A stretch of DNA of 64,000 nt from a virus. The stretch spans positions 1-64,000 of the IMG/VR virus record IMGVR_UViG_3300040801_002693. One strand, written 5' to 3'. Of the stretch, positions 9,341-54,042 are shown piece after piece (positions within the stretch are counted from its first letter, which is position 1; the number at the start of each line of letters is the position of its first letter). The notes beneath the pieces are model-generated. The model had not been told where the DNA came from. It worked only from the letters and a program-made list of their open reading frames with translations, and ran no database searches. Both the position numbers and the translations under genes were made by a program.

Positions 9341-9369
9341 TTGACCTACCATCTTGCATAGTAGATAAT
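9341..9369 (+). promoter_or_regulatory. Early rightward promoter TTGACC-N17-GATAAT whose spacer is the 17-bp operator; also serves a leftward unit
   Basis: -35 at 9341-9346 and -10 at 9364-9369. The spacer at 9347-9363 is TACCATcttgcATAGTA. On the minus strand the same site reads TACTATgcaagATGGTAGGTC, an extended -10. Confidence 0.6.
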
Positions 9370-9437
9370 TCAATTGTAGGTTTTGAAGTGATAAACAAGG
9401 TTCGGGGTGGTCTCGAACCTGAAACAAGGGGAACATC

Positions 9438-10403
9438 ATGAAAACCAAATCTTTCCGTAGTCCGGCTGAAGCGATGGCGGCGTTTGAGTTGGCGCTTGCT
9501 AATCATATCAATGAAAAATTCGAAGAAGGTCTTTATTTTGGTGACAATGATCACTGTCTTGCTGTCTTTGGTGAAAGCATCAAATCAGTAGTCGGTATGG
9601 ATGCGCCTTATTTTGTGCATGGCATTGATGGCACTGTTATGAGTTGCGCGTCGTTCTCTGAAGCGGTTTGGGGAGCGGCGCTGCTGGCGGGAATCGATCA
9701 GCGCATAAGCTTTTCAGAATATAAAACCGCTCGTGGTGGTTGGTTCTTTGTAGAGTGGGATATCGAGCCGGTTGCACTTCCTGTTTCTGCGGTCGTTATC
9801 TCTGAATCTGATAACAAACTCGAACTGCTGCCGGTTATCGCTTCGCCCGTCTCTGACATGATCGCCCTGGCGGGCGACATGCTCGCCAGTCATGGGCCGT
9901 GTTCGGTATCGGTCCCTTACTCGTTCTATATGGCGTATGGAAGGGGCGGCAATCGCCCGTATTTCCCGGTACCGTTATTTCTGTTTCCTGTCGAAAAGCG
10001 TCCGTTCGCTCGCCCGTCCGCGCTTCTGATGCGCTTACTGGATCGGGCGGCGTCTATCGCCGCTACGGTTGCTCCTACTTCTCCTGCTGTCGTTCGCTCT
10101 GATGTTGTGGCGCGCTCGCGCTATCTCGAAAATGGGCGTGACGGTTCGCGCTTCCTGCCTTGTCCGCGTCAATGGTCGGATCACGTAAAAATCAAGGGCA
10201 AATTTGGCGCGTCATTCCTGAAAAAGTGGGATGAAGCGGCGCGGTATGCGGGGTCTGCTATCGACGCCATGATGAGAATCCAGAAAATGGGCGTTCCTTT
10301 CTCGTTGCACCTGGTTTCTCACACTTCCGGGTGTGATTCGGAACGCTGGTATGTCGGCGCGATAACGAAATTTGATCGTTTCGGCTACGTGGTTAAGTCC
10401 TGA
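9438..10403 (+). CDS. Hypothetical early protein (321 aa)
   Basis: First ORF of the rightward early operon, with a GGGGA SD 6 nt upstream. No recognisable motif. Confidence 0.55.
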   Translation: MKTKSFRSPAEAMAAFELALANHINEKFEEGLYFGDNDHCLAVFGESIKSVVGMDAPYFVHGIDGTVMSCASFSEAVWGAALLAGIDQRISFSEYKTARGGWFFVEWDIEPVALPVSAVVISESDNKLELLPVIASPVSDMIALAGDMLASHGPCSVSVPYSFYMAYGRGGNRPYFPVPLFLFPVEKRPFARPSALLMRLLDRAASIAATVAPTSPAVVRSDVVARSRYLENGRDGSRFLPCPRQWSDHVKIKGKFGASFLKKWDEAARYAGSAIDAMMRIQKMGVPFSLHLVSHTSGCDSERWYVGAITKFDRFGYVVKS

Positions 10404-10487
10404 GATTTTAATTGACAGCGCTCTGCTGATAACAGGGCGCTAGGGGAATAAGATGGAAAACTTTTTTAGTAGTGAATCGCCACATTC

Positions 10488-10664
10488 ATGCGGTTTTTAT
10501 ACCAGGCGGAATTATACATTCTGCTTAAGCTTCTGGACTCTCATGGGTGTCCGGGTGAAGTGATCGGCTCGGTCTGTCAACAGTTTGATAATAACTATCC
10601 CGACGGTCTTTACACAGCGATCGCCTGGGCTTGGAACCAGGTCGTTTCAAGGGGTGCAAAATGA
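10488..10664 (+). CDS. Hypothetical small protein (58 aa)
   Basis: Below the ORF-track cutoff. ATG at 10488; the stop overlaps the next start as ATGA. Confidence 0.35.
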   Translation: MRFLYQAELYILLKLLDSHGCPGEVIGSVCQQFDNNYPDGLYTAIAWAWNQVVSRGAK

Positions 10665-10834
10665 GTAACAAGCGCAAAATTCAATTAGAGCGTTTGTTGC
10701 GCAAACTGCGGCAAATTGAACCTGATTCATATAAGCGGGAAAGATTAATTGTTCTCGTTAAATCAAGGCTTGGTCTGGATGAATCTGGTAATAATTTAGT
10801 TCTGGCCTATTGGGCCGAAACAATGGGAGTTTGA
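10661..10834 (+). CDS. Hypothetical small protein (57 aa)
   Basis: Start trimmed to the ATG at 10661 (MSNKRKIQ...), with a GGGGTG SD-like sequence upstream. Confidence 0.5.
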   Translation: MSNKRKIQLERLLRKLRQIEPDSYKRERLIVLVKSRLGLDESGNNLVLAYWAETMGV

Positions 10835-10837
10835 TCA

Positions 10838-11125
10838 ATGAATACTCAATCATCCGCTCGTCAAAATTGGCGTATCGCTTTCCAAGCGGCTCGGTCTGGT
10901 CGCGCTCTTTATCCTGAGCAAGCTTTTAGCGTTGAAGCGCTGGCGCTTCTCAATGCATTGAAACGCTCACCGTTAAACGTCCGGCATGATCGGTGGCTCT
11001 CGAAGTCGATCGCCGATATTAGCAGGGCGTCAAAATCGGCTGCTGGCGTCACTGAAACGGCGCGTTGGTTGGTGCCCGCTCGGGCCGCGCTTTATGCGTC
11101 ATGGCATCTGCATAGGGGTGCGTGA
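10838..11125 (+). CDS. Hypothetical protein (95 aa)
   Basis: Tightly packed co-oriented early ORF. Confidence 0.5.
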   Translation: MNTQSSARQNWRIAFQAARSGRALYPEQAFSVEALALLNALKRSPLNVRHDRWLSKSIADISRASKSAAGVTETARWLVPARAALYASWHLHRGA

Positions 11126-11126
11126 T

Positions 11127-11432
11127 ATGGCGACTTATCGCACTGTAGTTTATATGGATTCTTCTGACGCTGATGAGGTACAGGCGATCATCAAAAAAGC
11201 GGAATGGTCTCGACGGGGTGCGGCGTGGGTTCTCCGCTATCTTCAACAATGGGATACCAATGAAGGGGATATTTCTGATAGTGCGCCCTGGGGCGGGAAT
11301 GATGACTTTGAGCGGTTTCCCTGCTCGCGGTCGGGCCGTCTTGATCGGCGTTCTAATTCGGCTGAATGGGTGGTTAGTTGGAATGATCACCTTGATTATA
11401 TTTCTTTAACCTTTGTTAATTGGAGTGAATAA
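11127..11432 (+). CDS. Hypothetical protein (101 aa)
   Basis: Start trimmed to the ATG at 11127, 1 nt after the upstream stop, with an AGGGG SD. Confidence 0.5.
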   Translation: MATYRTVVYMDSSDADEVQAIIKKAEWSRRGAAWVLRYLQQWDTNEGDISDSAPWGGNDDFERFPCSRSGRLDRRSNSAEWVVSWNDHLDYISLTFVNWSE

Positions 11433-11433
11433 A

Positions 11434-11928
11434 ATGGATAGCGCATACGATAGTTTCGATTTCGAGTATGAGGGTTTGCAGTTCAAAGCGAACCTTTATT
11501 ATGACGATAGCGGGATAATCCCATTTAAGGAGTTCGATTGTTATGGAGTTGTTTCTGATTGGACTTCGCGCGACAAGGCTCCGGGTGAACGCGAACTATA
11601 TTCGGATCGCGGGGATAAAAGATTTTTCGATCACGCGGCAACCGTCGCGCTTTTTAAGTCCTGGGGCGCTACTGGTGAAGACGCGGATAAACAGGCTAAA
11701 CAGGCGTTTGATCGGCTCCGGGGTTGGTATAACGATAACTGGTTTTACTGTGGCATCTCGATCATCCTGTGCGATGACTCCGGGGATGAAATAGACGGAG
11801 AAGGTTATCAGTTCGCTTTATGGGGTATTGAAAGCGATGCGGACGGTTATCATCGGGAAGTCGCCCGGGAACTGGCTTCTGAGGTTATCGCTAGTTATCA
11901 AGCTGGTATGATGGGGGTGGCGGCATGA
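11434..11928 (+). CDS. Hypothetical protein (164 aa)
   Basis: ATG at 11434 with a GGAG SD. The WGIESD and FDCYG motifs are recalled from phage/plasmid leading-region proteins; function unknown. Confidence 0.55.
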   Translation: MDSAYDSFDFEYEGLQFKANLYYDDSGIIPFKEFDCYGVVSDWTSRDKAPGERELYSDRGDKRFFDHAATVALFKSWGATGEDADKQAKQAFDRLRGWYNDNWFYCGISIILCDDSGDEIDGEGYQFALWGIESDADGYHREVARELASEVIASYQAGMMGVAA

Positions 11929-12218
11929 TCGCGATATCCGAAAAACTCGCTACTCGGTTGGGGATATCTCCTACTGAAAAACTGCCCTTGGTGGCGTGGC
12001 CTGGGTGTTATCCGCTGGCTTATTACAGTGAAGATATGTGTGTTTTTTGTCCTGACTGTGCGGAACGATTGAGGGATGAAATAGTTGATGCTGACGTGTA
12101 TTGGGAAGGGGCCGCTATGCAGTGCGATGAGTGTAATACACTTATCGAGTCCGCTTATGGTGACCCTTGGGCCGAAACTGATGAAACTTTGAATAACGGG
12201 AGTATTGAAAATGTCTGA
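11925..12218 (+). CDS. Small zinc-ribbon protein (97 aa)
   Basis: ATGA overlap with the upstream gene. Contains CVFCPDC...CDECN. Confidence 0.55.
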   Translation: MIAISEKLATRLGISPTEKLPLVAWPGCYPLAYYSEDMCVFCPDCAERLRDEIVDADVYWEGAAMQCDECNTLIESAYGDPWAETDETLNNGSIENV

Positions 12219-12537: not shown

Positions 12538-13073
12538 ATAACCAATTAACTCTTTCTGAGTGCAAAGCGATTATTCGGAATGCTCGCAATAATCAGGGAT
12601 ATAAGTTCGGCTCTCCGCTGGCTGCGTTCCTCTATGATTCTGACTGGATGTCGTGCTGTAACTTTGAAGGGAGTCTGGAGGGTTTCGGCTGGGCGGGCGC
12701 GTGGACGTTATCTCATCCTCTGGATGGGGAACTGGCGCTTTTCCGGGAGTGTAGGGACACAGCAGTAACATGCGTTGTGCTTTATCAGGATGATAGCGGG
12801 TTTGTGTCGGCATGGGCGGAAACCCGTCCAGCCGATAAAGTTGAAAAGGCGCTAAATGAAGAGTTCTATCCGGGCTGTTTTTCGTGCGGTGCTACTATTC
12901 CGTATGGTGAAGGATTGGAAATATACGATGCTGTTTATTGCGAAAATTGCGCCTGCGAGTGCGATGTTTGCGGGCAAGTCGCGCTGACTGATGATTGTAT
13001 CCTTGATGTGATCGATCAAGATACTGGGGAGCAAGGGCGCGTTTGCTCTGAATGCATAGAAGTTTCTGCTTAG
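12534..13073 (+). CDS. Hypothetical Cys-rich protein (179 aa)
   Basis: ATGA overlap with the upstream gene. C-terminal CENCACECDVCG...CSEC cluster. Confidence 0.55.
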   Translation: MNNQLTLSECKAIIRNARNNQGYKFGSPLAAFLYDSDWMSCCNFEGSLEGFGWAGAWTLSHPLDGELALFRECRDTAVTCVVLYQDDSGFVSAWAETRPADKVEKALNEEFYPGCFSCGATIPYGEGLEIYDAVYCENCACECDVCGQVALTDDCILDVIDQDTGEQGRVCSECIEVSA

Positions 13074-13490: not shown

Positions 13491-13499
13491 GGGGTCGTC

Positions 13500-23097: not shown

Positions 23098-23357
23098 AAC
23101 GAGGTTCCTGTTGAATACCGGAACCGCCACTACTGGTGCTAAGCAGAAGGCGGCGGACTGTGAAGAGTTAGCACTACCGGCAACAGGAACCGGCCCACCT
23201 TTCGATGGCCCTACACAGCCCGCCATTGAGATACGGACATAAAAAATGCGCCGTTTCGCAAATTGGACGCTATGCGCCTGTTGATTCGGGGTGCTAATCC
23301 CGACTCCCGATTTTGCGAGAGTGGGATAATTATAGCGCAACATCATTGATGTAATAA

Positions 23358-23663
23358 CTAAAAAGGAATTTCTTTGTCGAACCCGCCGTCATCCGCTGGA
23401 GGCGGTGCTTTGGGGGCATTTGCGGCTCCCTGCTCACCTCGCGGTTTCGGGTCAAACATGCTGACCGCAACGGTGCCTGACCCTTCCTTGCCTGCCGGGA
23501 TCGGTACGCCTGCTGGGCTAAAGTCCCGATTCAAGAGGATCATTTTGCCGTTATCGTCCATCTGCAATACGCAGCCGACGTTCCTCCATTCCGCTTTGGT
23601 TTGCCCATTGCGATCCGTATAGGAACCCATCTTGACGCACAAATCTTTGATCTTTTTTGGCAT
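23358..23663 (-). CDS. Small SSB-like protein with C-terminal acidic IPF tip (101 aa)
   Basis: Ends ...PADDGGFDKEIPF, resembling the D-D-D-I-P-F tip of bacterial SSB. The N-terminal ~70 aa are beta-rich, followed by a Gly/Pro/Ala linker. Confidence 0.45.
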   Translation of the reverse strand: MPKKIKDLCVKMGSYTDRNGQTKAEWRNVGCVLQMDDNGKMILLNRDFSPAGVPIPAGKEGSGTVAVSMFDPKPRGEQGAANAPKAPPPADDGGFDKEIPF

Positions 23664-23682: not shown

Positions 23683-23710
23683 ATCATACCATTCTGGATG
23701 GTAAATGCAA
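23683..23710 (-). promoter_or_regulatory. Leftward operator-promoter TTGCAT-2-TACCATccagaATGG-TATGAT
   Basis: On the minus strand, -35 is at 23705-23710, the operator at 23687-23703, and the extended -10 TGgTATGAT ends at 23683. Sits 20 nt upstream of the SSB-like start. Confidence 0.6.
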
Positions 23711-24243: not shown

Positions 24244-24614
24244 GCGCTCGCTCGATCCTGTAGCCGCTTTATGCGGTTACCGGCGCTCCAGTACTGCATC
24301 CAATCCAAATCTTCCTGACTCACGCTCAGATGCTCCGGCGCATTCGATGCATCCTTTTTTGGTGGAGGGGTTTCCCGCAAAGAATCGACAGAAACCCAGC
24401 CTCGGTTTTGGAGATAATAGATATCGCCGCCTCCGCGCAACGTCTGTAGCGCCTTCTTGATTTTCATTTTCTTTTCTTTAAATTCACTAAACAATTCACT
24501 CAGCAGCATCGGTCGATCGCACTGCTTTATGTAATTCAAAACCACATCAGCAAACGGGAGTTTTAAATCCGATCCCGATTCGGATTGTTCGGTTTTTTCC
24601 ATTGCCTCATCCAC
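24240..24614 (-). CDS. wHTH-like protein with C-terminal QEDLDWMQYW motif (124 aa)
   Basis: Shares its C-terminal motif with the upstream 165-aa protein. Confidence 0.5.
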   Translation of the reverse strand: MDEAMEKTEQSESGSDLKLPFADVVLNYIKQCDRPMLLSELFSEFKEKKMKIKKALQTLRGGGDIYYLQNRGWVSVDSLRETPPPKKDASNAPEHLSVSQEDLDWMQYWSAGNRIKRLQDRASA

Positions 24615-25060
24615 TCTAAATCCTCCTGAGTCGTAAATTCACGATCAAAAATCACCCGCCAGCCGCACGAGGATTTGGCAAGTCGGCGCTCTTCACGCAA
24701 CGCTTCAAGAAGGTGTTTGACGTAACTGCGAATAAAGCCGGACTGCTGAACCAGGGTTTTTACGGAAACCCCATACAAGACCTCGGCGGAGTCACACAGG
24801 GCATAGATCGCTTCCTTGTCGGCCTCGGCGTTCGGGTACGGAAAAACCTGATCCTGCGATACGGTTCGCCATCCGGCGCTGTCCCGGTAGATCAATCCAT
24901 GTCGCCGCCGAAGCCGCTGAATCGACCGGCGCATCTGCATCGGCGTTAGATGCAGTTCCCGGCGCATGGCGTAGGGATTGGCCGGTTCGTTCTCCCGGAT
25001 ATAGCCGATCACACGACCGTCAATTTCGTTGCGATGCAGCGGTTGCGCTTCGCTTAACAT
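24563..25060 (-). CDS. wHTH-like protein with C-terminal QEDLEWMRQW motif (165 aa)
   Basis: Two wHTH-like segments. First gene after the duplicated leader element B. Confidence 0.55.
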   Translation of the reverse strand: MLSEAQPLHRNEIDGRVIGYIRENEPANPYAMRRELHLTPMQMRRSIQRLRRRHGLIYRDSAGWRTVSQDQVFPYPNAEADKEAIYALCDSAEVLYGVSVKTLVQQSGFIRSYVKHLLEALREERRLAKSSCGWRVIFDREFTTQEDLEWMRQWKKPNNPNRDRI

Positions 25061-25213: not shown

Positions 25214-25253
25214 ATTATACCAGATCACTATCCTAAATGGTAGGTCAGTGCAA
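25214..25253 (-). promoter_or_regulatory. Leftward promoter region with operator CACTATcctaaATGGTA
   Basis: On the minus strand: TTGCAC (25248-25253)-N17-TAGTGA, plus a downstream extended -10 TGgTATAAT (25214-25222). Operator at 25226-25242. Confidence 0.5.
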
Positions 25254-27592: not shown

Positions 27593-28002
27593 TCCCAGGG
27601 TTCCTTTGCGCAGAGCGCATAGAATTCAGGCAGGGTGGGTGGGAAAGGTGATTTGCGTTCCTGAAAGCATTTCAGTAAGCCGCGTTCCAGGCGAACCAGC
27701 GGGATGCGGGAAAGGGCTTGTGCCCAGTAACTCATGGTCTCGGTGATATTTCCGTCCTCGTAGCAAATCGGCCCAAAGTTATCCGTCCACTTCTGCCCAT
27801 AGGTAATCTTCATCGACTTCCAAATCATGGCGATGATTTCGTCCTTGAGCGCCAAGTCGGAGATCATGAGTGGCCCGCTACCATTGCTCGGCTTGAGATG
27901 AGCGGGAAGATTGGGTTTCATTAAGCCGCTGCTGTTCGAGGTTGCGCATAAGGGCTGCTTCGAGGGCGTTGTCGTCTGCGACGGTGTGTTTTCGGGTTCC
28001 AT
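27589..28002 (-). CDS. Replication-associated protein with lambda-P-like motif (start uncertain)
   Basis: ERKSPFPPTLPEFYALCAKE resembles lambda P RQNRPFLPSPGQFVAWCRE. Positioned between the initiator and the helicase, as P is in lambda. ATGA overlap with the helicase gene. Likely true start at 27867 or 27921. Confidence 0.4.
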   Translation of the reverse strand: MEPENTPSQTTTPSKQPLCATSNSSGLMKPNLPAHLKPSNGSGPLMISDLALKDEIIAMIWKSMKITYGQKWTDNFGPICYEDGNITETMSYWAQALSRIPLVRLERGLLKCFQERKSPFPPTLPEFYALCAKEPWE

Positions 28003-28990
28003 TGTGACCTCCGGTGTGGGGGGTGGGGTTATTGACTGGAATCATCCAAGCATCTTGGAATTCTTTGCCGGCTCCAAAAAACCGCTGTGCTTTCATCACA
28101 TATTCCGTGTTGATCCAATTCTTTGAAGCAGCGTATCTCACGTAACGATCAAGCCCATCGCTCATTTCTTCAGATGTGTACCCTTCGTTGAGTCGTGCAT
28201 TGAAGGCGCGATAAGCTTTTTCCTTGGAGTTGCCTCCTGCTCTTGTCGGGTATCGTTTCCAAAGCGACTCGAAGATTTCTGGATAGGCGTTTTTCGTCTT
28301 GGACGTTTTTCGCACATCCCCCCCTTGGGGGGTAGGGGGGTTATCTTTTACGGTTCCATTTACGGTTCTATCTTTATATAAAAGGAGTGCGTCATCGTTT
28401 TTGCCGAAAATTCCGACATAGGCTTCCGAAAATTCCGACATAGGCTTTTCCTTTGTCGGGTTTTCCGACATTGGGATAGATTGTTGATTTGACTCTATTT
28501 CATCTCCTGTGTCGGAAATCCCTACGTCGGTTTTTCCTATGTAGGATTTTCCGACATTGGCATTGCTGTTATCTGCATGATTATTATCATCATCTTTACC
28601 TATGTCGGAAATCCCTACATTGGTTTTTTCGACATAGGGTTCTTGATGTCCTATGTCGGGTTTTTCGTTGTAGGGTTTCTGGTTTCCTATGTCGGTTTTT
28701 CCGACATTGTGTTGTCCAATAACAACCTCTAATTGCAACCGATGGCGGGCGGATTGTTTATGACCTCTTTCGGTGCGCCGGTCTTCGGAAGTAATTAAGC
28801 CGTACCTAACCAGCGCAGCCAGATGGGTTACAACAGTATCTCGATTCATGCCGCAGTCATAGGCAATCGCCTTTTGGCCGGGCCATGCTTTATCTTCAGT
28901 GTTGGCGTAATTAGCTAACGCCAAAAGAACTAATTTTTCGCCGGATTTGATTTGCTGCTTCCATGCCCATTGAATAGCGCGAAGACTCAT
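27878..28990 (-). CDS. Replication initiator-like wHTH protein containing internal iterons (370 aa)
   Basis: N-terminal wHTH (LVLLALANYAN...GQKAIAYDCGMNRDTVVTHLAALVRYGLI). The central peptide repeats VGKTDIG/VGISDIG are encoded by the DNA iterons. Confidence 0.6.
   Translation of the reverse strand: MSLRAIQWAWKQQIKSGEKLVLLALANYANTEDKAWPGQKAIAYDCGMNRDTVVTHLAALVRYGLITSEDRRTERGHKQSARHRLQLEVVIGQHNVGKTDIGNQKPYNEKPDIGHQEPYVEKTNVGISDIGKDDDNNHADNSNANVGKSYIGKTDVGISDTGDEIESNQQSIPMSENPTKEKPMSEFSEAYVGIFGKNDDALLLYKDRTVNGTVKDNPPTPQGGDVRKTSKTKNAYPEIFESLWKRYPTRAGGNSKEKAYRAFNARLNEGYTSEEMSDGLDRYVRYAASKNWINTEYVMKAQRFFGAGKEFQDAWMIPVNNPTPHTGGHNGTRKHTVADDNALEAALMRNLEQQRLNETQSSRSSQAEQW
28405..28710. repeat. Iteron array, candidate origin of replication inside the initiator gene
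   Basis: At least 12 copies of TTCCGACAT or its complement ATGTCGGAA, some with one mismatch. They are arranged as inverted pairs, for example ATGTCGG-ttttt-CCGACAT at 28689-28707. An A+T-rich core lies at 28571-28597. Confidence 0.7.
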
Positions 28991-29904: not shown

Positions 29905-29921
29905 TACTATCTTCGATGGTA
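29905..29921. promoter_or_regulatory. Operator copy TACTATcttcgATGGTA
   Basis: Intergenic, between the 29929 gene end and the 29722 gene start. Followed by an 8-bp hairpin GCCGGGAA/TTCCCGGC at 29872-29900. Confidence 0.5.
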
Positions 29922-30162: not shown

Positions 30163-30401
30163 CCAATCACCTCCTGGAACTTAGACCTCCAGCGTGGATA
30201 GGAGGTGTAGGGATTAAGGCGAACCTGCTCTGGATGCCACGGTGGAATCGAAATGAAGCCACCAATTGAATTCCAACGGCATAAAATCATGCCGTGATCA
30301 TCCAGAACATATTGGTTCGCCTCAAGATCGAACCGGCAACGATAGAGCGGTTCAGAACCATCTGGTTCTCCACCAAGATGAAAAGGGAGATCATTCTGCA
30401 T
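30159..30401 (-). CDS. Hypothetical protein (80 aa)
   Basis: Start trimmed to the ATG at 30401 (MQNDLPF...) behind an AGGAAA SD. Confidence 0.4.
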   Translation of the reverse strand: MQNDLPFHLGGEPDGSEPLYRCRFDLEANQYVLDDHGMILCRWNSIGGFISIPPWHPEQVRLNPYTSYPRWRSKFQEVIG

Positions 30402-30738
30402 TTTCCTGCTTCCCTCGCGCCGCATAGAGCGCATTGAGTTTTGAGACGGTCTCATTCAGCGCCAAGCGTTCCTCAGCCAGTTCATCCTCCAGGCGACGGC
30501 ACCGCTCCGTCTGCTGCTGCTGGATATGGCGCAACACGCTGATCTGATCGTCCAGGTTCATCGGGCGCTTCTCAAACAACCGACGATCCGCCGCACACTC
30601 CAGGATCGCCAGCGCCTTCTTGCTAGGCGCTGTCCGGCCCGATCGCCAGTAACTAATCGTTCTCACCGTCACTCCACACAGCCGCGCCGCCTGCTCGTTC
30701 CCCAGACCTGCCTTTTCCATCAGTTCTTTCACGTTCAA
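30391..30738 (-). CDS. HTH DNA-binding protein with C-terminal coiled coil (115 aa)
   Basis: NEQAARLCGVTVRTISYWRSGRTAP is a classic HTH. The C-terminal half is predicted helical and charged. Confidence 0.6.
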   Translation of the reverse strand: MNVKELMEKAGLGNEQAARLCGVTVRTISYWRSGRTAPSKKALAILECAADRRLFEKRPMNLDDQISVLRHIQQQQTERCRRLEDELAEERLALNETVSKLNALYAARGKQENAE

Positions 30739-34148: not shown

Positions 34149-34169
34149 GATTTTACTATCCTGAATGGT
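34149..34169 (-). promoter_or_regulatory. Operator copy TACTATcctgaATGGTG with minus-strand -10 TAAAAT
   Basis: Operator at 34153-34169. On the minus strand it reads CACCATtcaggATAG-TAAAAT. Sits 50 nt upstream of the helicase start. Confidence 0.45.
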
Positions 34170-34181
34170 GAATAGAGGTGT

Positions 34182-35163: not shown

Positions 35164-35195
35164 AGTTACTCCGGTAAATGGGTTTCCGCTGCATC

Positions 35196-35216
35196 ATCCT
35201 ACCATAAAAAATAGTA
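35196..35216 (-). promoter_or_regulatory. Leftward operator-promoter (TACTATtttttATGG-TAGGAT on the minus strand)
   Basis: Operator at 35200-35216 and extended -10 at 35196-35204 (plus coordinates). Confidence 0.5.
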
Positions 35217-35231
35217 ATTTCCAGAGAATCG

Positions 35232-35260
35232 TTGCATTTTACTATTTCGGATGGTAGTAT
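35232..35260 (+). promoter_or_regulatory. Rightward operator-promoter TTGCAT-2-TACTATttcggATGG-TAGTAT
   Basis: -35 at 35232-35237, operator at 35240-35256, -10 at 35255-35260 with a TGn extension. Confidence 0.6.
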
Positions 35261-35304
35261 GGCGCTGCTTTTCGAGAAGCCACAACCCCAAACTGAGAGC
35301 AATT

Positions 35305-38238: not shown

Positions 38239-38468
38239 TATGCCCCCGGAAGCAACGTCGCCCGCACCGCTGCATCCTTCGCTTCGAGCAGTTTGCGCAG
38301 CGCCACCGTCCGTTCAGGGCCAGGGTCTAGGTGATCGCACAGATAAAGCGCGATATCGTGAAACAGGATGGAGGTGGCTTGCAGATGCTCCGGGAGATGC
38401 GTGTAGGCAAACCACTTGAGCATACGTTCGCCTTCTTGCAGAGGTCGGATACTCTCGTCTTTCATCAT
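38238..38468 (-). CDS. Small helical protein with F-x-Y-x-H...ALRKLLEAKDAAVRA pattern (76 aa)
   Basis: ATGA overlap with the upstream gene. The pattern FAYTHLPEHLQ...PGPERTVALRKLLEAKDAAVRA is recalled from a very widespread small phage family. I believe, unverified, that this family includes the cyclic-nucleotide sponge Acb2/Vs.4. Confidence 0.5.
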   Translation of the reverse strand: MMKDESIRPLQEGERMLKWFAYTHLPEHLQATSILFHDIALYLCDHLDPGPERTVALRKLLEAKDAAVRATLLPGA

Positions 38469-38707
38469 TCCGCCCTGATCGTCTCAATCCACGCCAGGAA
38501 CTCCCCGGCATCCGTGTAGATGTCATCCACCTTATTCTTATGCATCGCCATCGCCAGCTTCTTAAAGTGGCCGGGTTCGATGCCGCAGGACTCCTTAATA
38601 GAAGCCACGATCGCGGCCTGATGGTCTTTCTCCCCGTCCGTCCGCACCAGGGAGTTCACGTATTCGCCGAGCGCATTTTTCAGCGTCGTCAGGTCATTGG
38701 AAGGCAA
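38465..38707 (-). CDS. Hypothetical protein (80 aa)
   Basis: Co-oriented; overlaps the upstream ORF. Confidence 0.5.
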   Translation of the reverse strand: MPSNDLTTLKNALGEYVNSLVRTDGEKDHQAAIVASIKESCGIEPGHFKKLAMAMHKNKVDDIYTDAGEFLAWIETIRAE

Positions 38708-39220: not shown

Positions 39221-39249
39221 AATCTACCATGCTCAATAGTTGCTTGCAA
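39221..39249 (-). promoter_or_regulatory. Leftward operator-promoter TTGCAA-2-AACTATtgagcATGG-TAGATT
   Basis: On the minus strand: -35 at 39244-39249, operator at 39225-39241, -10 at 39221-39226 with a TGn extension. Confidence 0.6.
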
Positions 39250-39259
39250 GATTTTTCTT

Positions 39260-39272
39260 CTATTCTGAATAG
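39260..39272. promoter_or_regulatory. Palindrome CTATTC-t-GAATAG between divergent promoters
   Basis: Perfect 6-bp arms; candidate binding site for the adjacent XRE protein. Confidence 0.45.
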
Positions 39273-39357
39273 TGATCAGGTAAAATACATTTAAAGCGAT
39301 AAAAATGTAGGCCAAATCGCTTTTTTGGACACCTTCTTACCCGCATTAGGTATTGCC

Positions 39358-39729
39358 ATGCACAAGGAAAATCAACACATTGTTGTGATTGATCCTAATA
39401 ATTCACGAGACTTTTTCATTAAGTTACGTGAAAAGTCTGGCCTAACGCAATCGCAGGCGGCGCGAGAATCCAAAATTGCGCAACAAACCATTTCTTTAAT
39501 GGAGAAGCAAGGGATTCGTTTGCGCACTAACTGGGAAGTGGCGGGACGTTTATTAAAAACCTATGCAAAACATGGCGCTCCATCCTGTTTTGCGCTGATT
39601 TTTAATAACGGAACCTTGCTTACGGAGGAAGCGATTCCGAGTCTTTACACACACGAGCAAACGCTTGAATTGACGAAGGATAAACTCAGAGACCAATTGG
39701 CGGAACTGTTAAAGAATCTGGACGGTTAG
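39358..39729 (+). CDS. XRE-family HTH transcriptional regulator (123 aa)
   Basis: LREKSGLTQSQAARESKIAQQTISLMEKQG is a classic Cro/C1-type HTH. An alternative TTG start lies at 39325. Confidence 0.65.
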   Translation: MHKENQHIVVIDPNNSRDFFIKLREKSGLTQSQAARESKIAQQTISLMEKQGIRLRTNWEVAGRLLKTYAKHGAPSCFALIFNNGTLLTEEAIPSLYTHEQTLELTKDKLRDQLAELLKNLDG

Positions 39730-39783
39730 CCAGGAATCTCGTCGCTCTAAACCCTTGACCCGCAGGAATGCGGGTTTTTTCTG

Positions 39784-39812
39784 TTGATTCCTACCATACA
39801 AAATGGTATCAT
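39784..39812 (+). promoter_or_regulatory. Rightward operator-promoter TTGATT-2-TACCATacaaaATGG-TATCAT
   Basis: Perfectly palindromic operator at 39792-39808. -10 at 39807-39812 with a TGn extension. Confidence 0.6.
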
Positions 39813-47586: not shown

Positions 47587-47644
47587 TTGCAAATGACTAT
47601 CGCTCTGATAGCCTAACGCGAGTCATTCGATAGGAGTCTGATAG
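47587..47644 (+). promoter_or_regulatory. parA promoter TTGCAA-N16-TGaTAGCCT with four (A)CTATC/GATAG boxes
   Basis: -35 at 47587-47592 and -10 at 47609-47614. Boxes: GACTATC at 47595, and GATAG within 47604-47611, 47627-47633 and 47637-47644. The last box abuts the ATG. Confidence 0.55.
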
Positions 47645-48280
47645 ATGATCCTCACGGTCGGGCATACGAAAGGTGGAACAGGAAAAAGCACGATCGCACT
47701 GCACTTGGCGATGGCGCTCGCACAGACCAAAAAGGTGTTATTGATTGATGGCGACGAACAGCGATCGGCCCTTCACTTTACCTCATTGCGAAACGAGGTC
47801 GGTCAGCAGGACTACACCACTGTCGCTCTCTATGGAACGAGTCTCTTACTGCAAGGCCAGTTGCTTGCGCCGAACTACGAGGAAGTCTTGATTGATGTCG
47901 GCGGGCGAGACAGCGGCAGTCTTCGTGCGGCGCTCACCCTCTCTGATCGAGTGATCATCCCCAACGCACCTCGCACTTTCGATGTGTGGGCGATGGAGTT
48001 CTTGCAGACCCTCGTCAATGAAGCCAAGTCGGTCAATCCCAAGCTCCAGGCCCACTCGTTCATCAATCTGGGTGAAGTGCGGGGCAGCGAGAATCAGGAT
48101 GCTATTGAAGTCTTGCGTGAGTTTGAATCGCTACCCACTCTCGTCTCGATCATCATGCGCCGAAAGGTCTATGCCGAATCCCTCGCGCAAGGCAAGGGGG
48201 TGTTTGAGATGAAGAACGAGAAGGCGAAATCAGAGATGAATTCGCTTCTATCGGAAGTCTATCGGTTGACTATCAGTTGA
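47645..48280 (+). CDS. parA: ParA/Soj-type partition ATPase, small type Ib-like (211 aa)
   Basis: Deviant Walker A GHTKGGTGKST, plus LLIDGDEQ and VLIDVGGRD motifs. Confidence 0.85.
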   Translation: MILTVGHTKGGTGKSTIALHLAMALAQTKKVLLIDGDEQRSALHFTSLRNEVGQQDYTTVALYGTSLLLQGQLLAPNYEEVLIDVGGRDSGSLRAALTLSDRVIIPNAPRTFDVWAMEFLQTLVNEAKSVNPKLQAHSFINLGEVRGSENQDAIEVLREFESLPTLVSIIMRRKVYAESLAQGKGVFEMKNEKAKSEMNSLLSEVYRLTIS

Positions 48281-48298
48281 GTAGCAAAGGACTCTCAC

Positions 48299-48502
48299 AT
48301 GACCATCGGAAGAAAGCCAAAAGATACTCGCTTGGAGTTCATTCAGCGAGGGGAAACACAGAAGAGCGGCGAACCGTATGCGATCACCTTGCGCTTGACC
48401 CGAGACTTCCTGAATCGGATTGATGCGAAGGCGAAGAGTCTGAATATCACTAGGAGCGCATGGATCAAGAGTACGCTGACTAAAGGATTGGAAGACGATT
48501 GA
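48299..48502 (+). CDS. Ribbon-helix-helix partner protein, ParG-like (67 aa)
   Basis: Unstructured basic N-terminus, then ITLRLTRDFLNRIDAKAKSLNITRSAWIKSTL (RHH). Position immediately after parA. Confidence 0.6.
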   Translation: MTIGRKPKDTRLEFIQRGETQKSGEPYAITLRLTRDFLNRIDAKAKSLNITRSAWIKSTLTKGLEDD

Positions 48503-48506: not shown

Positions 48507-48555
48507 AACTATCCGGTAATCCCGGATAGTTGAACTTGTAAGTATTCCTTACAAG
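48507..48555. terminator. Two back-to-back hairpins at a convergent junction
   Basis: AACTATCCGG-taatc-CCGGATAGTT at 48507-48531 and CTTGTAAG-tattc-CTTACAAG at 48535-48555. U-tracts are weak. Confidence 0.45.
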
Positions 48556-49274
48556 ATCGAAGCCACCTTTTTAGAAGCGTCGTAACAGGCGACGGCACAG
48601 GGCTGATCCCCGCGCCGATCTTCTTCTTCAATCCGCTCGTCGGCAAGCGCTTCGGAAAGCATAATTGCGGAAATCTCCTTAAAGCTCAAATTATCCCGAA
48701 TATTGGCCTTTGCGGGAAGATTGCGCGCCTTACGAATATCCCCGGCAGTCCCGCCGAGTAACGGCTTGTAGGTCGCATTGGTACACATCGCAAAACCCTT
48801 ACCTGTCACTCCATGCTCCTGCAAGACCTCGGTATGATGGTTCCGCACCACCTTACTTTGCATCCGGGCCGCCGCCTTCTTCTGTTCCTCAATCGGCGCT
48901 TTCGTGCGATCCATCACCCGGTCGATGATGGACAGGTCGCCTTCCTCAACTTTCAGGAAGGTGTCGTTGACGATCCGCTTGAAGTCAGCAGAGAGGTAGC
49001 CTGCGTAATCGACCGCGAGAATCTTGTGCGCCCAGGTGCCGCCGTTGTGGCGACCACGACGGGTTTTATAAATGTCAGATTTAACGACGTTTAGATTTTT
49101 AGCAACAGCATCAATGAGTTGCTTTGTTGTAGGTAAAATAACCCAATGCCTCGGGTCTTGGTTTGGTGGACTCCCCGCTGCCACATGGAGGTCATTCAAA
49201 CAGACTAAATCCCCATCGGTGCGGATGCGGTGCTGATCCAGAGTGAAGGTTGTGATAGAATTCGATGAATTCAT
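48549..49274 (-). CDS. KilA-N domain protein (241 aa)
   Basis: N-terminal FTLDQHRIRTDGDLVCLNDLHVAAG...RHW...GGTWAHKILAVDYAGYLSADF fits the KilA-N pattern. Confidence 0.7.
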   Translation of the reverse strand: MNSSNSITTFTLDQHRIRTDGDLVCLNDLHVAAGSPPNQDPRHWVILPTTKQLIDAVAKNLNVVKSDIYKTRRGRHNGGTWAHKILAVDYAGYLSADFKRIVNDTFLKVEEGDLSIIDRVMDRTKAPIEEQKKAAARMQSKVVRNHHTEVLQEHGVTGKGFAMCTNATYKPLLGGTAGDIRKARNLPAKANIRDNLSFKEISAIMLSEALADERIEEEDRRGDQPCAVACYDASKKVASIL

Positions 49275-49370: not shown

Positions 49371-49387
49371 TACTATCTTTGATGGTA
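49371..49387. promoter_or_regulatory. Operator copy TACTATctttgATGGTA in a divergent intergenic region
   Basis: Lies between the KilA-N start (49274) and the 49437 gene. A TATAAT lies at 49397-49402. Confidence 0.5.
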
Positions 49388-49436
49388 GCAATCGGTTATA
49401 ATAGAACCTCAATCCCCACGAGTAATGAGGTTTGTG

Positions 49437-49676
49437 ATGCAGCGCAACACAAAACAAGTTGAAAAGATCGCCAAAGAGTTCGGTTTTTCTATCACATTGA
49501 TTCGTCAAAGAAATCACCTCTGTTTTCAACTAAAGAGAAAAAATGCTATTCGGTTATTGGTGACGGCAAAATCACCATCGGACTTCCGCGCATTAAGAAA
49601 TGTCCGAACGCAAATAAAAAAAATAGCGCAATCGCTCCAGGGGACTACCATTTCTAATGGTATTCTATTAAACTAG
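49437..49676 (+). CDS. Hypothetical basic protein (79 aa)
   Basis: ATG at 49437 behind a GAGG SD; an alternative ATG lies at 49425. Confidence 0.45.
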   Translation: MQRNTKQVEKIAKEFGFSITLIRQRNHLCFQLKRKNAIRLLVTAKSPSDFRALRNVRTQIKKIAQSLQGTTISNGILLN

Positions 49677-50562: not shown

Positions 50563-51655
50563 AGCCCTACGCAATGAACTGCTAACTCCGATTCAGACGG
50601 TGATTGGTGCCGTCGCCAGCAAGTCCTCGATGACTGCGCTGGAGCATATTCTACTGCGAACGAATGAACAGGTTACGGAGTTCGTCGCTACTGACTTGGA
50701 GGTGGAGATTCGCGCCAGTTCGGAGGCTGTGGTATCGGATGTTGAGGGTGAAATTACCCTGCCCGGAAAGCGCCTGTATGACATCCTGCGGGCGCTCCCG
50801 GATCAAAGCGAAGTCACCCTAACGATCGACGCAGGAAAAGCCGCCGTTAAGAGCGGTCGGAGCCGGTTTGCACTGAATACCTTGCAAGCCGACCTGTTTC
50901 CGCTATCTCTCGATGAAGAATTCTTGACCACTTTCACTGTCCCGCAAAGCCTGTTAAAACATGCGCTGGACTGCACGTCGTTTGCAATGACGCACGATAA
51001 AGACCCGAGAATGATGATTCGGGGCGTACTGTTCGACTGTCTGGAACGGGAACCCTTCCTGCGGCTAGTGGCGACCAACGGGCATCGGTTAGCGGCCTGT
51101 GATCTGCCCGGTGCGGAGATGCACGTAGAAGGCGAAAAGCAGGCCATTCTCCCGAAGAAAGGTTGTGCGGCGATCCAGAAGGCGCTGGAGGATAACGACA
51201 ACCCGGTGCGCGTCATGATCGGGAAGAATCACCTGCGATTGGTGGTCGGGACGACGACGATTACCTCCAAGTTGATTACGGAACGGTTCCCGGATTACCT
51301 TCGGGTGATTCCGCGCCAGCATCCTTATTCGCTGAGTGCTGACCGCGAAGCCTTCCGGGAAGTCCTGCATCGGGTGAGCTTGGGGTTGGATAAAGAGGCG
51401 GGGATCGGCCTGTCGATCAAAGAGGGGAAGTTACGGGCGTTCTCGCTGACCGAAGATACCGAGGATGAATTCGACCTGATCGACCACAGCGGGGATATTG
51501 AGATTGGCTTTAGCCCGTTCTATCTCCAGGATGTGCTGCGCGTACTGGAGGGGGACACGGTGGTGTGTGGGTTCCACGGGACTACGGATTCGTTCCTGAT
51601 TCAGGATGCGAGCAAGGAAGATCAGGTGCATGTAGTGATGTCGAGGCGCTTGTGA
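50552..51655 (+). CDS. dnaN: DNA polymerase III beta sliding clamp (367 aa), TTG start
   Basis: LL..IQTVIGAV...ALEHILL...VATDLEVEI...GEITLPGKRLYDILRALP...RFALNTLQADLFP is a canonical DnaN N-domain pattern, and the length fits three domains. GGGAGAG SD. Confidence 0.85.
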   Translation: MKIKALRNELLTPIQTVIGAVASKSSMTALEHILLRTNEQVTEFVATDLEVEIRASSEAVVSDVEGEITLPGKRLYDILRALPDQSEVTLTIDAGKAAVKSGRSRFALNTLQADLFPLSLDEEFLTTFTVPQSLLKHALDCTSFAMTHDKDPRMMIRGVLFDCLEREPFLRLVATNGHRLAACDLPGAEMHVEGEKQAILPKKGCAAIQKALEDNDNPVRVMIGKNHLRLVVGTTTITSKLITERFPDYLRVIPRQHPYSLSADREAFREVLHRVSLGLDKEAGIGLSIKEGKLRAFSLTEDTEDEFDLIDHSGDIEIGFSPFYLQDVLRVLEGDTVVCGFHGTTDSFLIQDASKEDQVHVVMSRRL

Positions 51656-51913
51656 AAGACCTGCTGTTGATTTTTGCGGTGTTTATCGGGACGTTTGTCT
51701 TTATCATCGGGGGCGCTCTGGCCTTGGGGCGCTCGTTGGGTTGGTTGTTGGGGGTGGGGTGATGCAGAAATACTACTTCGTGCTGGCGGCGCTGGAAATT
51801 AGGGAAATTCCTGCAAATGATGTGATGGCAGATAATCTGCTGTTTCTTTCGGTGGCGTGTCGGATGGAGGAGCTGCGGATGGACTTTTTGGGTTGTCTGG
51901 ATTCGGGGCTGTT

Positions 51914-52153
51914 ATGAACTGCCAGATTCACGAACCACTCGGGCGCTGCTGCTGCAATTGTCGCTGGCAGTTAGCGGCACTCGCACATCCCTGGAATAAA
52001 GGTTTTGCGAAGGGAAGGGTTACAGAAGTGATCGGCTGGCTGTGTACCGAACCGACGTTTCTGGAAGGGGAGACGCCGGGTGCGGTGTTCTCGGATTCAA
52101 AGCATGGATTGTGTGAGATGCATGAGGTTAAAGTAATCGAGGAGACAAAATGA
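51914..52153 (+). CDS. Cys-rich hypothetical protein (79 aa)
   Basis: Start trimmed to the ATG at 51914 (ATGA overlap with a 51-codon upstream ORF). CCCNCRW...C...C. Confidence 0.45.
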   Translation: MNCQIHEPLGRCCCNCRWQLAALAHPWNKGFAKGRVTEVIGWLCTEPTFLEGETPGAVFSDSKHGLCEMHEVKVIEETK

Positions 52154-52440
52154 ACGAGTTAATTTATATCGTTATCGGAAGAACTGGAGAATATTCGGAT
52201 CAAGTAGAATGGATAGAGGGCGCTTATCGCAACGAAGAGAACGCCAAGAATCGCGTGATCGAATTGGATAACCTGATGCGATTATATGGGTATTGCTCAC
52301 TGGAAGATAACTCGATGGAGTATGAAGAACGCGAAAAGTTAATTAAGTTAATGAAAGAAAACCCGAATGGTGATAGCGAGTTTTGTTTTGATTACACAGG
52401 AACGCGCTATCATTATGTATCTGTTTGTGTGAAAGACTAG
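52150..52440 (+). CDS. Hypothetical protein (96 aa)
   Basis: ATGA overlap with the upstream gene. Confidence 0.5.
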   Translation: MNELIYIVIGRTGEYSDQVEWIEGAYRNEENAKNRVIELDNLMRLYGYCSLEDNSMEYEEREKLIKLMKENPNGDSEFCFDYTGTRYHYVSVCVKD

Positions 52441-52448
52441 GAACGAAA

Positions 52449-52721
52449 ATGACTGCTATCGAAAAAGAATTGAAAGACAAAATACTGGATTCCATTACTG
52501 CCGATAAAGAGCGCTTTTTTGAAGCAGATGGAAAAACGTATATGCGCTATGATCGGATTGAGGTCTCCGTAGAGAATGGAGAATTGAGCGTGGCGTTTTA
52601 CTACAAGGACGACCTTCTGTACAGCAACGAAGCGCCTGCGACCGGGGTATCGCGGTTAGATGAACTAGGGAAAGTATATCTGGGTGGACTGTATGGTGGG
52701 ATTGAAATCAAACTGGATTAG
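52449..52721 (+). CDS. Hypothetical protein (90 aa)
   Basis: Start trimmed to the ATG at 52449. Confidence 0.5.
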   Translation: MTAIEKELKDKILDSITADKERFFEADGKTYMRYDRIEVSVENGELSVAFYYKDDLLYSNEAPATGVSRLDELGKVYLGGLYGGIEIKLD

Positions 52722-52729
52722 GAGGGTGA

Positions 52730-52924
52730 ATGCTAAACCCAAAGACCGGCGAGCGGTACATCACCGCCATTAAACTGATCGACATCATCTACGAATTCCC
52801 ATCAAAAAGCCGGATCACATCGAACGCAGTTGGGAGCCTGATGGTGGAATCGGAGGATGGTCGATATATCGGGTACATAAATATTGGGGCTGAAACAGCG
52901 GAGAAATTAGATGACACTCGATGA
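52730..52924 (+). CDS. Hypothetical protein (64 aa)
   Basis: GGAGGG SD. Confidence 0.45.
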   Translation: MLNPKTGERYITAIKLIDIIYEFPSKSRITSNAVGSLMVESEDGRYIGYINIGAETAEKLDDTR

Positions 52925-53108
52925 TTTTATTGATTCACGCCAGCAGCAACTCATTGAGTTTCGTGCGTGGTGTATTCGCAATAACGACGATCAGTGCCGG
53001 GATGAGCCGGACTGGGAAAATGATTTTGTGATTTTTATGGAGGATATACACGAACCAAGCATGTTGATGGGAGAACTTGACCCTGAGACGATGGAGTTTG
53101 TTGAGTGA
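52911..53108 (+). CDS. Hypothetical acidic protein (65 aa)
   Basis: Overlaps the upstream ORF. Confidence 0.45.
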   Translation: MTLDDFIDSRQQQLIEFRAWCIRNNDDQCRDEPDWENDFVIFMEDIHEPSMLMGELDPETMEFVE

Positions 53109-53431
53109 TCATCAACGGTGTAGATGTTGACCCGCGTATTGACCCTCGGGATCGAGACCACGTGTACGGGAAGCCGCCTGCCAAACTCTATCATCCCGAT
53201 ATTCCTGGTTGTAGTAGTGGGGATTGCATTTTCCAGGATAACTCAGGTGGAGCGCAGACTAACGGCGGATGTGCTTGTAGCAAGGAGTTAGCGAGGACGG
53301 TTGAAGGAAGGAAGGCGATCCGGGAAATTCACTGGTTGCGCCATCAATACCAGGCAAGCCATGAAGAACTGCGGCAATTATTCGATGCGTACCGCCTGGG
53401 GGAACTGAACTCGCGTAGGGATGGGTTTTGA
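53105..53431 (+). CDS. Hypothetical protein (108 aa)
   Basis: GTGA overlap with the upstream gene; last gene of the operon. Confidence 0.5.
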   Translation: MIINGVDVDPRIDPRDRDHVYGKPPAKLYHPDIPGCSSGDCIFQDNSGGAQTNGGCACSKELARTVEGRKAIREIHWLRHQYQASHEELRQLFDAYRLGELNSRRDGF

Positions 53432-53459
53432 TGATAGACGCCTTTTTTCAAAAAGGGGG

Positions 53460-53487
53460 TTGACAATACTATTTTGTATGGTAGGGT
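53460..53487 (+). promoter_or_regulatory. Operator-promoter TTGACA-1-TACTATtttgtATGG-TAGGGT
   Basis: Consensus -35 at 53460-53465 preceded by an A/T-rich UP-like tract. Operator at 53467-53483. Extended -10 at 53479-53487. Confidence 0.6.
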
Positions 53488-53493
53488 GTGATG

Positions 53494-53617
53494 GTCGGAT
53501 TGGCAACCGACGATCAATGTCAAAGACCCGTTCTGAGGGGCTTGAAGTAACCAAAGCGATTTGGCATTGAATCGTGAGGTTGTCCGCCAAGACCAAGCTC
53601 CTCAAAACGGGTTTTTT
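53494..53617 (+). ncRNA. Candidate ~124-nt structured small RNA ending in an intrinsic terminator
   Basis: The predicted start site is followed by the hairpin GTCGG-8nt-CCGAC (53494-53511). An 18-bp helix then forms between 53527-53544 and 53594-53611 (one mismatch, one G-U pair), enclosing the hairpin CCAAA-gcga-TTTGG. A T6 run follows at 53612-53617. No ORF. Confidence 0.5.
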
Positions 53618-54013
53618 GCGTCTAGCATCCGACTTTGCTTTGGGGAGACCGTCGATGACCACCGTACCCTGAGCGAGAGCGTTACGGGGGAATCATGCAC
53701 AGCGCAAATGATATGAGTGACCGAAGAAAGTCTTGATCGAGTCTGGATGTATGTTGGGGAAACCCTCGCAGGCACAGAGATCAGGATGGACGTTCGGGGG
53801 CCGAGACCAGCATGGGGCGTGACAGGAGTTGCGCGTAATGAGGCCAGTGGGCAAAACCGTGGGGCTGATGAACTCAGGGTGATGCTTTCTCACTAAAGGC
53901 GTTCTTTTGAATGCCTTTAGGTGAGTAATGTGAGCTTCCCGGAAGCTTCCGTAGCCTAGGGTGATCAACGCTATATAAAACGAAACCAACACTACAGAAA
54001 CTACATACAGAGG

Positions 54014-54042
54014 TTGCTTTCTACTATACAAGATAGTATAAT
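54014..54042 (+). promoter_or_regulatory. Operator-promoter TTGCTT-2-TACTATacaagATAG-TATAAT
   Basis: -35 at 54014-54019, perfectly palindromic operator at 54022-54038, consensus -10 at 54037-54042. Confidence 0.65.

Follow-up and report, generated by a model that had tools for sequence, protein, structure and literature searches.

In plasmid RK2, a partition-proficient replicon, the repressor KorB acts through a palindromic operator repeated at about a dozen promoters. Bacteriophage P1 has 22 dispersed 17-bp operators for its C1 repressor (PMC8546580), and the Cluster A phages L5 and Bxb1 and their kin carry up to ~30 dispersed repressor sites, where repressor and site co-vary between related phages and set immunity specificity (PMC6550527). 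These latter sites, the stoperators, are 13-bp asymmetric elements oriented with transcription that lie mostly outside promoters and block elongation (PMC6550527). The DNA analysed here, a window of 64,000 nucleotides (positions 1 to 64,000 of the IMG/VR virus record IMGVR_UViG_3300040801_002693), bears a recurrent 17-bp palindrome, TACYAT-N5-ATRGTA, built into promoters, together with a gene at 39358-39729 (+ strand) for a small XRE-type helix-turn-helix protein that is bracketed by copies of this element. The palindromes are probably operators for a homodimer of that phage-encoded protein.

Distribution of the palindrome and its register with promoters

The exact pattern TACYATNNNNNATRGTA (TACYAT-N5-ATRGTA, 17 bp) occurs 10 times in the 64-kb window and is absent from 100 dinucleotide-preserving shuffles (mean 0.00, maximum 0), and tolerance of up to one mismatch raises the count to 16 against 0.15 expected. 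A symmetrised weight matrix, made from the exact sites and then used to score the window, returned 14 convincing sites, with 12 at 18.8 bits or more (9347, 23687, 25226, 29905, 34154, 35200, 35240, 39792, 49371, 49646, 53467 and 54022) and the next two in rank, 39225 (15.1 bits) and 39258 (13.3 bits), beside the XRE gene. A doubtful low-scoring tail follows at 12893, 13166, 12235 and 8193; the one-mismatch copies at 8193, 12893 and 13166 are weaker and partly coding, and their membership is uncertain. The copy at 8193-8209 (TACCATCAACGATGGTG; 11.4 bits), situated in the divergent gap 7998-8343, is possibly a weak operator of uncertain status. An empirical background was provided by 1.24 Mb of related phage DNA, comprised of ~100 loci that encode relatives of the window's primase-helicase and no XRE homolog. 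These loci were without the motif and served as a negative control, and scores of 13 bits or more were reached 7 times in them as compared to 15 times in the 64-kb window. The initial annotation of this DNA had correctly recognized the recurrence of the element and listed 13 sites, a list that overlooked the exact copy at 49646 and the two-mismatch copy at 39258, gave 34153 for a site whose true position is 34154-34170, and admitted as a variant a sequence at 47595 (CTATC-N5-GATAG) that has another spacing and a low weight-matrix score and belongs to the ParA promoter.

On a self-trained and later corrected gene map, 13 of the 14 sites are non-coding, although the window is 85% coding (binomial P = 1.7e-10). 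The earlier statement that the element occurs only in gaps between transcription units holds for these 13 and fails at 49646, which falls within the last 31 nucleotides of the gene 49425-49676, a gene with a PHROG match. The possibility raised alongside it, that the motif might be no commoner than in shuffled sequence or just as common inside genes, was not borne out on either count. Sites are held by 12 of the 47 gaps of at least 40 bp and by five of the six divergent promoter gaps, the sixth being the ParA promoter with its own palindrome. In all, the 14 sites fall at 12 loci over 45 kb, and the terminase, virion-protein and DarB-like blocks are without a strong site. The proposal that nearly every early and middle unit is silenced was thus too broad, as the sites account for about a dozen units, yet they take in most of the divergent gaps.

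Both half-sites are equally conserved and contribute equal information to the weight matrix. Position 7 is weakly fixed (C 39%, T 34%), so that the extension to a 7-3-7 palindrome proposed at first is weak. The gammaproteobacterial SOS consensus is CTGT-N8-ACAG, and the present motif, a TAC-N11-GTA with other inner bases, does not have the identity of that LexA box. Searching the literature for the half-site strings yielded nothing but primers and unrelated operators.

In most sites, the element spans approximately positions -27 to -11 of a sigma-70-type promoter. Read in gene orientation, a TAnnnT hexamer occupies element positions 16-21 in 11 of the 14 sites (for example TATGAT, TAGTAT, TATCAT and TATAAT), compared to 4 of 14 on the opposite strand (Fisher P = 0.02), the latter being about the level of chance. 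The right half of the element thus supplies the start of the -10 hexamer, as had been noticed. A TTGnnn -35 hexamer lies 0-2 nucleotides upstream of the element in seven sites, six of which have it at the distance of 1-2 nucleotides that had been given for all seven. These six represent the main register, with spacers of 16-17 nucleotides, in which the ATGGTA half mostly gives an extended -10 (TGn) and also contributes the initial TA of the -10 hexamer. At 9347, the element fills the whole 17-nucleotide spacer of TTGACC/GATAAT, as first described, and a generic promoter scan independently recovered both this promoter (TTGACC-17-GATAAT) and TTGATT-17-TATCAT at 39792. In a further register, it is the -35 region ahead of a TATAAT- or TAAAAT-type hexamer that the element overlaps (25226, 39258 and 49371). 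The half-site centres are 11 bp apart and hence face the same side of the DNA helix. The position of an activator is never occupied by the element, and in all registers a protein bound to it would block the access of RNA polymerase.

Because the distal half-site is conserved as strongly as the proximal one yet has no promoter function, the element is better understood as the target of a symmetric dimeric binder than as a pure promoter class that needs no repressor and is recognised by RNA polymerase itself or by a sigma factor that is alternative or modified by the phage. The latter alternative, entertained in the initial annotation, is in keeping with the ATGGTA half as the start of an extended -10 (TGnTA), with the fixed register to -35-like and -10-like hexamers in most sites, and with the finding that generic sigma-70 promoter matches show no overall enrichment in the window on a generic scan. 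It is hard to reconcile with the chance level of TAnnnT on the opposite strand, with the existence of three registers to the -10 hexamer (that at 9347, the main class, and that at 25226, 39258 and 49371), and with the joint change of position 6 and its mirror position 12 in relatives, as for a dimer; in addition, none of the window proteins scanned was recognised as a sigma factor or an RNA polymerase. A separate promoter class is therefore not needed, and it appears improbable. Still further from likely is that the element is a target of restriction-modification or methylation, or another repeat with no part in transcription. N5-spaced bipartite palindromes are typical of some Type IIB enzymes, and the window encodes at least two DNA methyltransferases, but a methylation target would ignore coding status, whereas the sites are almost all non-coding and are locked to promoter hexamers, and the association with XRE genes in relatives would be left unexplained.

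The candidate repressor and its relatives

The candidate repressor is a protein of 123 amino acids with an XRE-type helix-turn-helix domain and a long C-terminal helix. Its gene (39358-39729, +) has the sites 39225 and 39258 upstream and, downstream, an intrinsic terminator (39757-39776, +) followed by the site 39792. In Pfam, the protein matches HTH_3 at 24.2 bits (cut-off 23) and HTH_31 at 26 bits, and its profile matches in the Protein Data Bank are an immunity repressor, HipB, CylR2 and 434 Cro. The AlphaFold model, with a mean predicted local distance difference test score of 77, displays a five-helix XRE domain and the long C-terminal helix, which in this model plausibly serves dimerisation. 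The nearest folds found by Foldseek are HipB and the restriction-modification controller proteins (both with probability 1.0), SinR and Aca1, and all of these bind palindromic DNA as dimers. No Peptidase_S24 domain was matched in the protein by Pfam, and the C-terminus is a single long helix in the model.

A word-indexed search of 5.8 billion proteins with the XRE protein returned only itself; three true homologs came to light in an exhaustive HMMER search, and with a profile search the family reached six members in total. The homologs are 39-44% identical and occur in a phage context on four contigs only (loci L227, L230, L231 and L232; 20.4 kb together), of which L227 and L230 are syntenic with positions 38-51.6 kb of the window and L231 and L232 are short contigs. 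All four loci have a related 17-bp palindrome upstream of the XRE gene, and in all four a hairpin with a T-run lies 3' of the gene, followed by TTGnnn, two nucleotides, the palindrome and TAnnnT. With the element given by its first 15 nucleotides only, this module consists of TTGATT, cc and TACCATACAAAATGG with -10 TATCAT in the window; TTGAAA, tt and TACCATGCAACGTGG with -10 TAAATT in L227; TTGATA, tc and TACTATAGACCGTGG with -10 TAATCT in L230; TTGATA, gc and TACTACAGTTTGTGG with -10 TATCGT in L232; and TTGCAA, tc and TACCAAACAGCTTGG with -10 TAGACT in L231. Further copies of the palindrome are present in two other intergenic gaps of L227, before the beta-clamp gene and at 8103, and dispersal is therefore common to the relatives. 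The family consensus TACYAY-N5-RTRGTA occurs seven times in the 20.4 kb of XRE loci compared to once in the 1.24 Mb of background (Poisson P = 6e-17).

Position 6 of the element and its mirror position 12 change together in the relatives, alongside the recognition helix of the XRE protein. The pair is T/A in the window, where the helix reads IAQQTISLMEK; mostly C/G in L227, L230 and L232, with (V/I)SQQLISxLEK; and A/T in L231, with VPQQTISWNEA. The XRE protein is also the only window protein common to all four loci and, judged from these sequence comparisons, is most likely the binder of the 17-bp palindromes. Four DNA-binding candidates had been named at the outset, and it is this one, flanked by sites and accompanied by the same palindrome in its family relatives, that has emerged as the likely binder.

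It is unlikely, though less so than the alternatives above, that the operators are real and are bound by another protein, be it the ParB_N-domain protein of 532 amino acids acting in the manner of KorB, the DsbA-like protein encoded at 38465-38707, a second XRE protein (30391-30738) or a host regulator. KorB, a repressor of the ParB family in plasmid RK2, has dispersed palindromic operators, and the ParB_N gene has two sites immediately upstream. The window protein, however, matches ParB at residues 4-128 only, with no DNA-binding helix-turn-helix detected, and it is not paired with ParA, which is encoded 11 kb away with a ribbon-helix-helix partner and a palindrome of its own. The DsbA-like protein, encoded in the divergent unit beside the sites, is 63% identical in L230, yet the operator differs between the window and L230 and it is the XRE recognition helix that differs in step. 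A host factor would leave unexplained both that the palindrome always brackets the XRE gene and that it is nearly absent from the 1.24 Mb of related phage DNA, with its single consensus match. The sharing of the XRE protein alone by all four motif-bearing loci speaks against each of these candidates, although the relative contigs are short and other candidates may lie beyond their ends.

Locus L124 shares recombination and replication genes with the window and has, at the equivalent position, a non-homologous helix-turn-helix gene, whose product showed no homology to the window XRE proteins. This locus features its own 17-bp palindrome family, TACTTT-N5-AAAGTA, at 2759, 13723 and 7853, in the same register (TTGTGT-2-...-TACAGT). 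On sequence grounds, L124 looks like an immunity-module swap, and the like TAC...GTA frame of its palindrome may be a convergence imposed by promoter geometry. The primase-helicase homologs P0006 and P0008, from L126 and L124, respectively, have ~950 amino acids as compared to 627 in the window and align in two blocks round an insertion of ~320 amino acids, which may be an intein. At positions 8900-9170 of L228, the XRE homolog P0128 adjoins a TnpB/IS605-type gene, an MmeI-type enzyme and at least four direct repeats (GGTCAATCCCCGCACCCGTGGGCGAACC) that resemble a CRISPR array.

Proposed regulation and the units concerned

With the palindromes taken as operators for the XRE protein, a dimer bound to its operator would exclude RNA polymerase, and one protein would keep about a dozen units shut, not nearly all. 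The units shut would be those of replication, recombination and nucleotide metabolism, the ParB_N gene, the KilA-N gene, the H-NS-like/beta-clamp unit, the unit containing a C4 RNA, and a small-RNA candidate. The XRE gene would be subject to autoregulation, its own promoter bearing the weakest operator (39258), and the terminator would insulate the repressor gene from the next, strongly operated promoter. Because the XRE protein is without a cleavage domain of the LexA/cI type, release would probably be brought about by an antirepressor rather than by RecA. Control of lysogeny or of a plasmid state in a P1-like lifestyle is suggested because the window encodes ParA with a ribbon-helix-helix partner, a DarB-like protein and a C4 RNA and has iterons in its initiator gene; the regulon may instead serve a temporal shut-off of early genes.

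Several points weigh against this interpretation. The link between protein and site consists of co-occurrence, position and one co-varying operator position in three specificity classes. Of the four relative contigs, three are short (1.3-7 kb), and other shared proteins could fall outside them; one further DNA-binding protein, the DsbA-like one, is indeed common to the window and L230. No TAC...GTA palindrome occurs in the surroundings of a fifth homolog, which is not in a phage context (L228/L229). That the flanks are of the sigma-70 type is assumed, and the missing enrichment of generic sigma-70 matches belongs among these points as well. No integrase turned up among the window proteins scanned, for a lifestyle presumed to be temperate, and the KilA-N protein as the antirepressor is a guess. 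Lastly, the window affords a partial view, being 64 kb of a source of ~114 kb, as its primase-helicase is identical to a Joint Genome Institute protein on a contig of 113,978 bp.

A more tentative proposal, and a rather doubtful one, is that operator and promoter constitute one hard-wired unit, through which immunity specificity diversifies across a dozen promoters with promoter strength untouched, and in which release is achieved by an antirepressor under the same operator. The proximal half-site is the extended -10 itself (T-15, G-14, n, T-12, A-11), and position 6/12 (equivalent to -22/-16), the one operator position to vary between relatives, lies outside the bases read by sigma-70, its variants T, C or A occurring with matching changes in the recognition helix. 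If true, this would be a compact natural case of co-evolution between a repressor and its set of promoters, extending over a whole regulon. The reading of the palindromes as operators would, if true, itself provide the regulatory map of a lineage known only from metagenomes, with one small repressor, ~14 operators and ~12 controlled units. The specificity series, comprised of three operator variants and three recognition helices, would then have potential use in studying the evolution of heteroimmunity where many promoters change together, and as a source of orthogonal repressor-promoter pairs. No new regulatory principle is involved, and the system is a fresh example of a known design, the main interest of which is the clean fusion of operator and promoter and the natural specificity series.

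From left to right, the first operator (TACCATCTTGCATAGTA; 9347-9363, +) is that which fills the spacer of TTGACC/GATAAT, and it faces the gene run from 9438. The operator at 23687-23703 (-) is part of a TG-extended promoter, TTGCAT-16-TATGAT, whose unit consists of the gene 23358-23663, the C4 RNA and nucleotide-metabolism genes. This RNA matches the Rfam C4 antisense RNA family (RF01695) at 23146-23230 (-) with 67 bits against a gathering score of 45, and the gene that follows it encodes an endonuclease VII-like protein, not an antirepressor. At 25226-25242 (-; one mismatch), a half-site covers the -35 of a TG-TATAAT promoter upstream of the gene 24563-25060. The operator at 29905-29921 (-), with -10 TATGTT and a weak -35, is upstream of the methylase/replication-initiator/primase-helicase unit, and that at 34154-34170 (-; one mismatch), with -10 TAAAAT, is upstream of a UvrD-type helicase unit. 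Inside the initiator gene (27878-28990, -), positions 28400-28710 contain at least 10 copies of a ~12-nucleotide unit (TTCCGACATAGG-like) in both orientations and at 15-36-bp spacing, which are probably origin iterons. The same repeat layout is seen in relatives with other units, TGGTAAT-N-ATTACCA six times in L147/L148 and ATGCG-N3-CGCAT three times in L122.

The operators at 35200-35216 (-) and 35240-35256 (+) are the two halves of a mirror-image divergent pair, the former in the leftward promoter TGGAAA-16-TAGGAT and the latter in the rightward promoter TTGCAT-17-TAGTAT upstream of the ParB_N-domain gene. These back-to-back operator-promoters (35188-35268) form a 30-nucleotide imperfect inverted repeat that is 77% complementary. 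Around the XRE gene, the operator at 39225-39241 (-; one mismatch) belongs to the leftward promoter TTGCAA-17-TAGATT of the unit with the DsbA-like gene, 33 bp from the operator at 39258-39274 (+; two mismatches, 13.3 bits), which lies over the -35 of the presumed XRE-gene promoter, TTCTAT-17-TAAAAT. The terminator at 39757-39776 separates the XRE gene from the next promoter, an arrangement kept in all four relatives. That promoter, TTGATT-17-TATCAT, contains the top-scoring operator of the window (39792-39808, +), a perfect TACCAT/ATGGTA, and is upstream of a recombination/RNA-ligase unit. The DsbA-like gene (38465-38707, -) encodes a protein of 80 amino acids that matches Pfam Phage_DsbA and a PHROG transcription regulator and may act in late transcription.

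The ParA promoter (47587-47644), TTGCAA-16-TAGCCT, bears its own palindrome, CTATC-N5-GATAG, and a repeated CTGATAG, and is followed by ParA (47645-48280) and a ribbon-helix-helix-like protein of 67 amino acids (48299-48502); the whole (47587-48502) appears to be a type Ib partition cassette that has an operator or centromere to itself. The operator at 49371-49387 occupies the divergent gap between the KilA-N gene (48549-49274, -) and the gene 49425-49676 (+), which has its -10, TATAAT, at 49397. The exact operator at 49646-49662 (+) coincides with the last codons of this gene and is 36 nucleotides upstream of the H-NS-like gene. At 53467-53483 (+), the operator-promoter TTGACA-16-TAGGGT faces a structured non-coding stretch of ~540 nucleotides without a convincing open reading frame. 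The first part of this stretch (53490-53625, +; ~135 nucleotides) is predicted to fold very stably (-60 kcal/mol, z = -6.7), with a GC stem and a T-run at its end, and represents a candidate small RNA; an Rfam search of the non-coding stretch gave no credible family. The last operator (54022-54038, +), a perfect TACTAT/ATAGTA in the promoter TTGCTT-17-TATAAT, is upstream of the gene 54109-54717.

Phage functions encoded in the window include the large and small terminase subunits, DNA methylases, a replication initiator and a DnaB-type primase-helicase, along with a UvrD-type helicase, a recombination exonuclease, an RNA ligase and a beta clamp. Further proteins are an H-NS-like protein, a KilA-N protein, ParA and its ribbon-helix-helix partner, the ParB_N-domain protein and a DarB-like protein of 2667 amino acids. 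A megablast search of the window against annotated phage and plasmid collections gave no match. A DNA pattern scan of IMG/VR, with the half-site and then the full site, returned chance matches only and no multi-site locus of a true relative, and IMG/VR searches for related loci with the ParB_N protein, the single primase-helicase protein and the XRE alignment found no relatives. Scans of a genome collection with the XRE and primase-helicase alignments likewise found nothing and gave no clue to the host. The gene content suggests an undescribed large phage or phage-plasmid with a P1-like lifestyle.

Comparison with known systems

The system shares with the Cluster A stoperators both dispersal and the co-variation of repressor and site, and differs in that its sites are symmetric 17-mers built into promoters. 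With RK2 KorB, it has in common a palindromic operator repeated at about a dozen promoters; unlike KorB, the ParB_N protein of the window is without a detectable DNA-binding domain and unpaired with ParA, and the motif tracks the XRE family.

Likeness to the cI and Cro repressors of lambda, 434 and P22 extends to the protein itself, an XRE-type helix-turn-helix with a Gln-Gln start to the recognition helix, and to the operators, which are palindromic, have an odd number of base pairs (17, as in lambda) and place their half-sites at a distance of one helical turn. As in these phages, the promoters on either side of the repressor gene are overlapped by operators (39225, 39258 and 39792 in the window, and also in L227, L230, L231 and L232), the weakest operator is on the repressor's own promoter, and heteroimmune relatives have altered operators. 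The lambdoid phages have two operator regions, in contrast to the at least 14 operators at 12 loci over 45 kb seen here. Unlike the lambda-type repressors, the window XRE protein is without an S24 self-cleavage domain, and its gene is a terminator-insulated single-gene unit in the same direction as the downstream lytic-type operon.

The likeness to P1 C1 is that of one repressor with many 17-bp operators scattered over a large genome of the phage-plasmid type, and the many dispersed operators overlapping promoters that distinguish P1 are found here as 14 sites at 12 loci. In both, the operators are situated inside sigma-70 promoters, with P1 Oc1d filling the 17-nucleotide spacer of P1coi exactly as site 9347 does in the window, and cluster round the repressor gene. 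Both also have a C4-family antisense RNA in an operator-controlled unit, partition genes and a giant DarB-like protein. The P1 operators, by contrast, are asymmetric (ATTGCTCTAATAAATTT), as opposed to the symmetric sites of the window, the best match to the P1 operator in the window is a single sequence with 4 mismatches, and C1 is a 283-amino-acid protein unrelated to XRE proteins. Searches of the window with P1 C1 (AF234172) by tblastn and phmmer gave nothing better than E = 0.2, no Coi homolog was found in the window, and the gene after the C4 RNA encodes an endonuclease VII-like protein in place of the antirepressor ant of P1 immI. The operator regulon likened to that of P1 C1 in the initial annotation is favoured in every computational test applied, with respect to the symmetry of the sites, their register and the candidate binder, and the likeness to P1 is functional only. 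In function, the nearest described system is P1 C1; by protein family and operator symmetry, it is the XRE repressor of the lambda/434 type.

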